A stretch of DNA of 64,000 nucleotides. It comes from an uncultured Holophagaceae bacterium. Lineage in GTDB: Bacteria > Acidobacteriota > Holophagae > Holophagales > Holophagaceae. Numbering within the stretch: position 1 is the stretch's first letter; each line of letters opens with the position of its first letter. This document shows positions 45,763-49,714 of this stretch, one piece after another. The notes under the pieces were generated by a model that was not told where the DNA came from, did not search any database, and saw nothing but the letters and a program-made list of their open reading frames with translations. The position numbers were made by a program, and so were the translations under genes. The stretch is from positions 1,620 through 65,619 of the forward strand of contig CAIMFT010000063.1 in NCBI GenBank assembly GCA_903840385.1, given 5' to 3'.

Positions 45763-46385
45763 GCCGTGCCGTAGAGGCGGTCCCCGGCGTCGCCGAGGCC
45801 GGGCAGGATGTAGCCCTTCTCGTTGAGCTGCCGGTCCACCGCACCCACCACGATCGTCAGGTCTGGATGGTCGGCCTGCAGGCGGGCGATGCCCTCGGGC
45901 GCGGCGAGGAGAGACACCAGCGTGAGGTTCACAGCTCCCGCGGCCTTGAGTTGCCGCACGGCCTCGGAGGCACTGCCGCCGGTGGCCAGCATGGGATCGA
46001 GGATGAACACTGGGCGCGCCTCGAGGAGGGGCGGGAAGTTGCGGTAGTAGGGCACGGGTACCAGCGAGTCATGGTCGCGGTAGAGACCGAGGTGGCCGAC
46101 CTTGGCCGTGGGCATCAGCTGCAGGAAGGCGGGCAGGAAGCCGAGGCCTGCGCGGAGGACGGGCACCAGCACCGGATCGAGCGCACCGAGGCGCCGCGTC
46201 TCGGTGCGCTCGAGAGGCGTTTCCACCACGGCGGACACAGTGGGAAGGCTGCGCGTGGCCTCTGCGGCGAGCAGCAGTCCAGTCTCTTCGATGAGGGCTC
46301 GAAAGAGGCTGCCAGCGGTTTTGCGGTCGCGGATGAGGGAGAGCTTGTGGTGGACCAGCGGGTGGTCGAGCACGTGGACGGACAT
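45759..46385 (-). CDS. upp: Uracil phosphoribosyltransferase
   Basis: HPLV.HKL..IRD, VPVLRAG, GH.GLYRD, LDPMLATGGS, LN.KGYI.PGLGDAGDR.YGT. Confidence 0.97.
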   Translation of the reverse strand: MSVHVLDHPLVHHKLSLIRDRKTAGSLFRALIEETGLLLAAEATRSLPTVSAVVETPLERTETRRLGALDPVLVPVLRAGLGFLPAFLQLMPTAKVGHLGLYRDHDSLVPVPYYRNFPPLLEARPVFILDPMLATGGSASEAVRQLKAAGAVNLTLVSLLAAPEGIARLQADHPDLTIVVGAVDRQLNEKGYILPGLGDAGDRLYGTA

Positions 46386-46613
46386 GGGAACGCCTCCTGT
46401 CTGATGCTGCAAGTGTGGCGCACTGCGCAGGGTCAGAGGAGGGAAATGAATGGGGTGCTGGTGGAGAGGTAGCGTCAAAAAAAATGACGATTTTTTGAAT
46501 TTCTCTGTTGACCTCATCCCGATCGCTGGTTTTATGTTGAATCAGAGGAATATTGGCCAACCATCTTCCCCATAGGGCCTGCAGCGAGGTATCTGAGATT
46601 TGGAGCGTGGTAA

Positions 46614-48065
46614 ATGCTAAAGAAAGTCGCCATATTCAAGGCCCTCGATGTGGAAATCAAGAAGCAGAGGGGACCCGTGGCGGTTAAGGACGGCTACAAG
46701 GGCCATCACTCCCTCAAAGAAGAGCTCAGCCAGCCTGGAATCACCATCTTGGGCGAAGTGGCCGGGGGTGACCCTGGCCGTGGTCAGGTGCGGGAATCCT
46801 ACAAGGCCTCCACCCACGCCAAGAGTCTGGCGGAAAACGGTGCCAAGGCGCTCTCCATCGCCACGGACAAGTTCCTCTACTACGGCGAGGACAAGCACCT
46901 CTCCGAGGTGCGCGCTCAGGTGAAGGTGCCCCTCATCCGTCGGGACTTCATCTTCGAGGAGTACCAGGTCGAGGAGAGCAAGATCCTCGGTGCCGATGCC
47001 ATCTACCTCATGCCGGCCATGCTCCCCCAGGAGCGGCTGCAGACCCTGCTGAAGTTCGCCATGAGCAAGGGTCTCGACGTGGTGGTGGAAGTGACCTCCG
47101 AGCTGGAGCTGGCCCGGGCCGTGGAGGCCGGGGCTGACATCGTGTGTGCCGTGGGCCGCAACCTCGACACCTGGGAAGCCTCCTGGGACCTGGCGCTCGC
47201 CCTCGTGAAGAAGGTGCCCAAGAGCTGTCTCCGCATGATCGAGGGCGGCGTCCTGCGCCTCGAGCAGATCAAGCAGGCCGAGGCCCTCGGGGTCCACGGT
47301 CTCCTCATCGGGGACGCCCTCCTCGACGACTACTATCCCGGCAAGCGCCTGGCCCAGATCCTGGCCGGCGTCGAGCCCCCAAAGAAAGCCGTGAAGCCCA
47401 AGGGCAAGACCGGCTCTGCCGCAGCAGCGGCGTTAGCCCCCACGGCCGCTCCTGCGGCCAAGGAATCCATCCCCACCCCGCGGGAAGTGCCTGCCCCCAC
47501 CGGCGCCAAAAGCGCCAAGGGCAAGGTCGCCACCCCCGCTCTTCCTTCCACCCCCGCCCTTAAGGGCAAAAAGGAGCCAAAAATGGCTGATCTGACCCCT
47601 CCGGCCGCCGCGCCGACCCCCGCCGCCCCGAAGAAGGCCGCCGCCAAGAAGGCCGCCCCCAAGAAGGCTGCTGTGAAGAAGGCCGCTGCCCCCAAGAAGG
47701 CCGCCGCCAAGAAGCCCGCCGCCAAGAAGGCCGCTGCCCCCAAGAAGGCCGCCGCCAAGAAGCCCGCCGCCAAGAAGGCCGCTGCCCCCAAGAAGGCCGC
47801 CGCCAAGAAGCCCGCCGCCAAGAAGGCCGCCCCCAAGAAGGCCGCCGTGAAGAAGGCCGCTGCCCCCAAGAAGGCCGTTGCCAAGAAGGCCGCCCCCAAG
47901 AAGGCTGCCGTGAAGAAGGCTGTTGCCCCGAAGAAGGCCGTTGCCAAGAAGGCCGCCGCCCCCAAGAAGGCTGTTGCCAAGAAGGCCGCCCCCAAGAAGG
48001 CCGCCGCTCCCAAGAAGGCCGCCGCCAAGAAGCCGGCTGCCAAGAAGGCCGCTGCCAAGAAGTAG
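46614..48065 (+). CDS. TrpC (IGP synthase)-like barrel with degenerate active site fused to histone-H1-like Lys/Ala/Pro tail
   Basis: LS..TD, P..R.DFI...YQ..E....GADA, VEV, LIG.AL pattern of IGPS, then about 145 aa of KKAAAPKK repeats in the same frame. Confidence 0.8.
   Translation: MLKKVAIFKALDVEIKKQRGPVAVKDGYKGHHSLKEELSQPGITILGEVAGGDPGRGQVRESYKASTHAKSLAENGAKALSIATDKFLYYGEDKHLSEVRAQVKVPLIRRDFIFEEYQVEESKILGADAIYLMPAMLPQERLQTLLKFAMSKGLDVVVEVTSELELARAVEAGADIVCAVGRNLDTWEASWDLALALVKKVPKSCLRMIEGGVLRLEQIKQAEALGVHGLLIGDALLDDYYPGKRLAQILAGVEPPKKAVKPKGKTGSAAAAALAPTAAPAAKESIPTPREVPAPTGAKSAKGKVATPALPSTPALKGKKEPKMADLTPPAAAPTPAAPKKAAAKKAAPKKAAVKKAAAPKKAAAKKPAAKKAAAPKKAAAKKPAAKKAAAPKKAAAKKPAAKKAAPKKAAVKKAAAPKKAVAKKAAPKKAAVKKAVAPKKAVAKKAAAPKKAVAKKAAPKKAAAPKKAAAKKPAAKKAAAKK
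47631..48062 (+). repeat. Coding low-complexity repeat (PKKAAAKK)n, including three perfect 48-bp tandem copies at 47676-47819
   Basis: Unit aagaaggccgctgcccccaagaaggccgccgccaagaagcccgccgcc starts at 47676, 47724 and 47772. Confidence 0.95.

Positions 48066-49714
<1,649 letters not shown>

Follow-up and report, generated by a model that had tools for sequence, protein, structure and literature searches.

A putative in-frame internal start, conserved across Holophagaceae, as a candidate source of a free histone-H1-like protein from an indole-3-glycerol-phosphate synthase-like fusion gene

Does a gene whose close relatives are annotated either as 'indole-3-glycerol-phosphate synthase' or as 'histone H1/5' encode, through a second start codon inside its own reading frame, a histone-like protein that stands alone? 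The question is raised by a 64,000-nt stretch of DNA (the window; NCBI GenBank assembly GCA_903840385.1, contig CAIMFT010000063.1, positions 1,620 to 65,619) from an uncultured member of the Holophagaceae, here represented by freshwater bacteria. On its forward strand lies an open reading frame (ORF) of 483 amino acids (46614..48065; 50.0 kDa, pI 10.2; stop codon TAG at 48063-48065) which joins three parts: a (beta/alpha)8 barrel resembling indole-3-glycerol-phosphate synthase (IGPS; residues 1-255, 46614..47378), a Pro/Ala/Lys/Thr-rich linker that is predicted to be disordered (residues 256-323, 47379..47582), and a histone-H1-like tail, at the beginning of which a Shine–Dalgarno (SD) sequence and an ATG stand in frame. 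A first-pass annotation of this DNA had suggested that the locus yields two isoforms, barrel plus tail and tail alone, or that a formerly separate gene was captured by stop loss. Having compared the orthologues of the family, we regard it as probable that a conserved in-frame internal start yields a free H1-like protein of ~15.5 kDa beside the 50-kDa fusion.

The signal itself can be read directly in the DNA, and it is as the first-pass annotation had described it. AAGGAG, which makes up the codons of Lys322 and Glu323 (47571-47576), is followed by the two-codon spacer CCAAAA (47577..47582) and then by ATG GCT GAT from 47583, in frame within the ORF and at the start of the tail. Together with the preceding A the SD reads AAAGGAG (47570..47576), and because the 16S rRNA of two congeners (G010 and G020; 3' end CCUCCUUUCU) terminates in GGATCACCTCCTTTCT, all 7 nt of it pair with the 16S 3' end ...CCTCCTTTCT; the anti-SD was taken from these congeners, as no 16S rRNA gene was found in the window's own assembly, nor in G002 or G017. 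The primary start has the weaker sequence GGAG with an 8-nt spacer (46602..46605), and the earlier remark that the internal SD is the better of the two holds for the window; among the orthologues, which share the MLKK beginning of the full ORF (from ATG, or from TTG in L069), the primary SD varies between GGAG, GGAGG, GAGG and GGGGG. Internal translation initiation sites are recognised by a start codon 5-9 nt after a 16S-complementary sequence, and by conservation of SD and start together with locally lower synonymous variation; here the ATG follows AAAGGAG at 6 nt, and both the conservation and the lowered synonymous variation were found. Ribosomes that start at 46614 would make the 50-kDa protein, consisting of the altered IGPS-like barrel, the disordered linker and the Ala/Lys/Pro tail, and ribosomes that bind AAAGGAG, on either the complete message or a shorter RNA, and start at the ATG at 47583 would make the tail alone, a putative product of 160 aa, 15.5 kDa and pI 11.4 (47583..48065). 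Initiation at the internal ATG, accumulation of the short protein and its binding to DNA are the steps that we infer.

Comparison of the ribosome-binding site among orthologues had been named as a check on the first-pass proposal, and the site proved to be conserved. Of 133 Holophagaceae genomes, 117 have the barrel (E ≤1e-40), among them members of all 16 of the 16 genera and 72 of 76 high-quality genomes, and matches outside the family were canonical TrpC or TrpC-TrpF proteins only. Eight Geothrix genomes gave no barrel match; in the three that were checked (G017, G084 and G077) the contig with the neighbouring gene eno begins within the tail repeat, so that the gene is broken by the assembly and these absences are assembly breaks, not losses. 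No eno match was found in G068, and the sole eno match in G016 is 61% identical. Sixty loci could be read across the junction, and these have AAGGAG-N6-ATG in 57 cases, GTG or CTG in place of ATG in one case each, and no motif in one, which puts AAG GAG at the junction in 59 of 60. All 23 loci of a first Geothrix set read A AAG GAG CCA NNN ATG GC, and so do 16 of a further 18 from this genus (L041 has CTG for ATG and L042 stops before the junction, which leaves 17 readable); 20 loci from 15 other genera comprise 18 with AAG GAG N6 ATG, one with GTG (L072) and one without the motif (L058). The spacer is always 6 nt long and its letters vary (CCACCC, CCAAAA, CCAATC, CCAATT, TTCCCC, AACCTC, ACATCA and others), so that its codons specify 12 or more distinct residue pairs (PP, PK, PI, FP, FQ, NL, SP, PQ, PS, PR, TS and LP). 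The residue after the Met is Ala, Glu, Gly or Val, the first base of its codon being G in 36 of 36 distinct sequences, and upstream the residues A-[RQLH]-K-G are conserved. Judged from these alignments, the family-wide conservation of the site cannot be a matter of chance.

The synonymous positions bear on whether the junction is held at the level of the RNA or of the protein. Across 42 loci the junction Lys and Glu codons are AAG in 42/42 and GAG in 42/42, never AAA or GAA, whereas every one of 23 barrel columns conserved as Lys or Glu in the same loci, used as a control, is polymorphic in codon (pooled, AAG 418/539 and GAG 253/419). Synonymous-site entropy, calculated in 10-codon windows over 23 Geothrix orthologues, lies at 0.6-1.2 bits for the greater part of the barrel, where the lowest window has 0.25-0.31 bits (0.25 being that of the gene's own 5' end), and is 0-0.15 bits at residues ~306-335, around Met324. 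Codons that are otherwise rare are fixed near this Met, namely CAA (4.1% of Gln), GTA (2.1% of Val), CCA (6% of Pro) and GAA (16% of Glu), and within Geothrix the nucleotide-level conservation reaches ~50 nt 5' of the SD. Fixed K, E and M with a fixed spacing, amid spacer residues that vary, would fit an RNA signal and not a peptide; since AlphaFold2 (AF2) predicts the stretch to be disordered and not docked on the barrel, the invariant Met has no evident protein-level reason.

Several points weigh on the other side. In the genome from which the window comes (1,672 ORFs, filtered by G+C content at third codon positions, GC3), 13 of 11,022 internal in-frame ATGs are preceded by AAGGAG at a spacer of 5-8 nt, a chance rate at which the occurrence in a single genome alone is not significant. 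AAG (94.6%) and GAG (84%) are the preferred codons of the genome anyway, and, the element being inside the coding frame, selection on K-E-x-x-M at the protein level must formally be allowed for. One Geothrix locus, L041, has Leu (CTG) at the start position, in L058 of genus g18 the motif is gone and the tail is another one, made of acidic and proline-rich repeats, and in genus g13, with genomes of ~0.9-1.2 Mb (L053/G042 and L070/G041), the short product would have only 33 aa. The predicted folding of the mRNA does not help either, 50-nt windows centred at -20 and -10 folding as the gene average (-13.6 and -14.3 kcal/mol) and the only weak-folding windows lying at -50 (-5.1) and at +10/+20 (-9.4/-9.3 kcal/mol); that the weakest predicted folding over 41 loci is near -50, and not at the start codon, is neutral. 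A scan of 46300-48250 found no sigma-70-like promoter, a result that is neutral or counts with these points.

Some of these observations would be expected if only the fusion is made and A-x-K-G-x-K-E-x-x-M is a linear peptide motif, a processing or binding site, whose likeness to an SD is incidental. Such a motif would explain why the element is in frame and translated within the long ORF in every locus, why its Lys and Glu codons are those that the genome prefers, why one genome tolerates Leu in the place of Met and why A-[RQLH]-K-G is kept upstream, yet it would have to account for synonymous sites that are suppressed too, for rare codons that are fixed, and for a junction pair that never changes codon when all of the control columns do. 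Variation is free at both positions that separate E from M and at the one following M, in a stretch predicted to be disordered and undocked, and the only codons found otherwise at the Met position, GTG and CTG, are each one base from ATG. We therefore take the peptide motif to be the best of the alternatives and still an unlikely one.

A second alternative takes up features of the RNA around the junction. The internal start is preceded by a G-poor, C/A/T-rich leader (47523..47555), the G fraction of these 33 nt averaging 0.080 vs 0.315 in the barrel (42 loci), and between leader and SD, ending 3 nt before the latter, lies a small possible hairpin, GCCC-UUAA-GGGC (47556..47567). RNAalifold returned it as the single consensus helix, of 4 bp, with SD and start unpaired; pairing holds in 99.3% of cells, a compensatory G-C to C-G change occurs in 2 of 36 sequences, and the helix is weak evidence because its four pairs are explicable by the Ala/Pro and Gly codons of Ala-x-Lys-Gly. 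Transcripts were also searched for: eight runs matched with small shares, and metatranscriptome contigs from four runs of one freshwater study cover parts of barrel and tail, including two that bridge the internal start (X1 record 4, 47420-47590; X4 record 26, 47400-47668). Assembled RNA contigs are blind to starts, strand and level, and depth over the repeat is mixed with that of other organisms; they were not used as evidence. Letters of the sequencing adapter stand directly before 46564 in contig X3, 50 nt 5' of the primary ATG, and directly before 47400 in contig X4, inside the linker and 183 nt 5' of the internal ATG, and these two ends could be RNA 5' ends, one contig each proving nothing.

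An RNA element acting on the long mRNA with no second protein, be it a pause of elongating ribosomes between barrel and tail or a processing or stability signal made of the hairpin and the G-poor tract, would make sense of a kept hairpin with two compensatory changes, of nucleotide conservation extending well upstream of the SD in Geothrix and, as a weak hint from one contig of one run, of the adapter-bordered end at 47400. A pause or processing signal needs no ATG at a fixed distance of 6 nt, however, and 58 of 60 loci retain a start codon (57 ATG, 1 GTG), with G as the next base in every distinct sequence, and the hairpin amounts to four pairs that the Ala/Pro and Gly codons can explain. On balance this appears quite improbable.

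That a second protein would be made besides the fusion, and not in its place, is suggested by the linker. No readable locus shows a stop codon or a change of frame between barrel and tail, and the linker differs in sequence and in length between genera by indels that are always in frame, so that the long form is also under selection, which makes two products likelier than a mis-annotated two-gene locus. The unfused state was found neither in the 133 Holophagaceae genomes nor among 1.84 billion protein representatives (no search being aimed at tail-only homologues), and in five genomes of two sister families nothing H1-like or IGPS-like was found in the 1.5 kb upstream of eno. Stop loss between a barrel gene and an H1-like gene, leaving the tail as a nested gene served mainly by its own internal promoter, is less probable still, for the full gene-start anatomy of the junction (G-poor leader, strong SD, ATG, G at +4, and Ala or Glu as second codon), the family match of the tail alone and, as a weak hint, the RNA contig end at 47400 are met by the failure to find either an unfused arrangement in these genomes and representatives or a sigma-70-like promoter in 46300-48250, and by linker indels that point to selection on the fusion. 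The two-isoform proposal of the first-pass annotation thus has strong comparative support, in 57 of 60 loci, suppressed synonymous variation and fixed rare codons, with the short product itself being predicted from sequence.

Two further observations concern the linker and the copy number of the gene. The linker blocks 47379-47425 (residues 256-270) and 47457-47490 (residues 281-292) have low synonymous entropy among the Geothrix orthologues (0.07-0.38) and contain rare codons (AAA AAA, TCT, and ATA in relatives); conservation of their nucleotides across genera is not apparent. Some assemblies have two barrel matches, partly at contig ends (G021, on C98 and C52; G061, G065, G075, G119 and G139), which may reflect gene duplication, a mixture of strains or a split gene, and in G119 the barrel was read in two adjacent pieces.

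What, then, is the long protein? Pfam places residues 29-239 in the IGPS family (PF00218; 159.5 bits vs a cut-off of 27, 1e-46), above the gathering score, and the best PDB match of the barrel is 6bma (8e-35). All 14 NCBIfam TrpC equivalog models remain under their cut-offs, the best being NF001377 with 173.3 bits vs 260. When 12 members of the clade were aligned with 124 canonical TrpC representatives (240-290 aa, drawn from the best 150 matches), four otherwise near-invariant residues were found to be replaced: the Lys of E-x-K (124/124 canonical; position 50) by Ala, the Lys of R-K-D-F (123/124; position 110) by Arg, the Asn of G-I-N (122/124; position 180) by Val, and the Ser of E-S-G (123/124; position 211) by Gly or Ala, Gly in the window. 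Aligned pairwise with 6bma, the barrel has the same four replacements, and all four residues have catalytic roles in IGPS. A second IGPS gene with canonical motifs lies on another contig of the assembly (C43), between genes for a TrpD-type phosphoribosyltransferase and PRAI, whereas the fused gene is not placed with other trp genes, its locus being that of upp and eno, outside the trp cluster. The Holophagaceae barrel thus has the fold and a clear sequence homology in common with canonical TrpC, and has lost the four invariant residues and the trp-cluster placement; on sequence grounds it is probably not a TrpC enzyme and probably altered in catalysis.

The barrel also forms a clade of its own. 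The search of the 1.84 billion representatives returned eight proteins with at least 59% identity, the next having at most 38%, which is where ordinary TrpC begins, and by this gap in identity the clade is confined to Holophagaceae; the sources of the close relatives are Geothrix fermentans, G. alkalitolerans, G. rubra, Geothrix sp. and a Holophagaceae bacterium. AF2, run with 42 orthologues, gave a confident prediction for residues ~30-255 (pLDDT mostly 70-97 for 31-250) and a pLDDT below 50 for residues 258-336, with the junction motif not docked on the barrel.

The tail product consists of 45% Ala, 35% Lys and 12% Pro. It is matched by Pfam HC2 (PF07382; cut-off 40) with 45.3 bits when taken alone and with 40.3 bits in the full-length protein (C-terminal 146 residues), a membership that is a compositional, low-complexity match; the NCBIfam H1-like models NF038053 (40.4 vs 80) and NF038052 (17 vs 135) remain far under their cut-offs. 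No other HC2 match occurs in the assembly, and in a composition scan of the genome, stretches rich in Ala and Lys turned up in only three further ORFs, which are of other kinds. These lie on contigs C12, C64 and C119: one encodes 824 aa and has a basic C-terminus of Ala, Lys and Pro, another is a frame of 218 codons in which Ala/Lys/Glu repeats accompany an apparent signal peptide, and the last, of 180 codons, is rich in Ala, Lys and Val in its N-terminal half. Inferred from its composition, the tail most likely resembles H1/Hc2-like proteins in binding or coating DNA or some other polyanion.

At the DNA level the tail is a tandem array of 15/18-nt units (47622..48062; best-fit period 48 with 9.3 copies according to TRF), within which the three perfect 48-bp copies of the first-pass annotation were recovered as a perfectly periodic run of 155 nt (47676..47830; ~3.2 copies), exact self-matching at period 48 extending over at most 107 nt. 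Its suggestion that codon use becomes highly biased after the internal start stands as far as the codons are concerned (AAG 56/56 and GCC 58/72) and fails for GC3, which is as high in the tail (0.88) as in the barrel (0.87), the odd part being the linker with 0.72. The variation in length that it had expected of the repeat was found between species, the tail after the Met having 66-176 aa in Geothrix and 33-235 aa across Holophagaceae, with the qualification that fragmented assemblies, in which the repeats may be collapsed, supplied the shortest tails of Geothrix. The two g13 loci with the shortest tails, L053 and L070, have retained barrel and linker as well as AAG GAG CCA ATC ATG, and in genus g18 (L058 of G089 and L072 of G087) the tail is replaced by acidic and proline-rich repeat units, e.g. 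PTPVPDSDPTPAKTPAKKTAVAKKAD.

The surroundings of the gene add a few details. It has upp and eno on either side, and between the tail stop and the start of eno at 48138 lies a 12-bp G+C-rich hairpin with the loop CTGG and no U-tract (48097-48124), of which near-identical copies stand at the same place before eno in three congeners (L079-L081). This hairpin is absent from the list of the terminator scan, in which two terminator-like matches within 46300-48250 were judged unconvincing. Two minus-strand open frames opposite the repeat, 47333-48304 (323 aa) and 47560-48084 (174 aa), arise from the GC-rich, low-complexity nature of that repeat and are not genes.

Internal starts that free C-terminal modules are already known, and the Holophagaceae gene adds a case; ClpB-79, CheA-S and SafA-C30 are in-frame short proteoforms of this general kind. 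The closest parallel is ArcB-C of Escherichia coli, whose in-frame start codon follows an SD and coincides exactly with a domain boundary; it is supported by conservation, reduced synonymous variability, Ribo-RET and western blot (10.1101/520783). ArcB resembles the Holophagaceae gene in having a conserved start in the 3' part of the gene, at a domain boundary and with low synonymous variability, that frees, or here would free, the C-terminal domain; it differs in that ArcB-C has been detected experimentally and is a folded phosphotransfer domain taken from a sensor kinase, whereas the Holophagaceae product is predicted from sequence and would be a low-complexity basic tail taken from an enzyme-like barrel (10.1101/520783). 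The isoforms of IF2 made from infB, named in that paper as the classical internal-start case, likewise comprise long and short forms that share a C-terminus, as proposed here (10.1101/520783). In cases of the IF2 type both forms retain the catalytic or functional core, whereas the Holophagaceae short form would be without the whole folded domain.

Parallels to the tail exist as well. Chlamydial Hc2 and the bacterial H1-like proteins have Ala/Lys/Pro repeats and a high pI in common with it, and differ in being encoded by stand-alone genes, whereas the Holophagaceae tail is nested in a larger ORF and its match is compositional. A basic tail of the PAKKA type is also found in mycobacterial HupB. 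In Mycobacterium smegmatis Ku, a PAKKA-type, lysine-rich, low-complexity C-terminal tail on a folded domain modulates DNA binding (PMC3553676), and the joining of such a tail to a folded domain is seen in the Holophagaceae fusion too. In these proteins the folded partner is itself DNA-binding, and no internal start that frees the tail is mentioned for them in the abstract (PMC3553676). A literature search at the level of titles and abstract openings, without supplements, found no description of the Holophagaceae gene, of its eroded barrel or of the internal start.

One could go further and imagine that the only HC2/H1-like nucleoid protein of the Holophagaceae is made from a start nested in a pseudo-enzyme gene, that the barrel, without catalysis, retains a ligand pocket, that long and short isoforms mix on the DNA, and that a sensed metabolite tunes the compaction of the chromatin via the ratio or the behaviour of the two forms. 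We offer this as speculation, and a rather unlikely one. The conserved internal start, which we hold to be probable, is easy to test, since its SD can be destroyed by the synonymous recoding of AAG GAG to AAA GAA. For annotation pipelines the locus is a caution against naming proteins with fused low-complexity tails by their enzyme-like domain alone: if the short protein is made, the name 'indole-3-glycerol-phosphate synthase' hides both a barrel that is probably not TrpC and the source of an H1-like protein. The gene would then be a clean addition, conserved throughout the family, to the short list of bacterial C-terminal modules made by internal initiation, and it would be the locus from which the Holophagaceae obtain a histone-H1-like protein.

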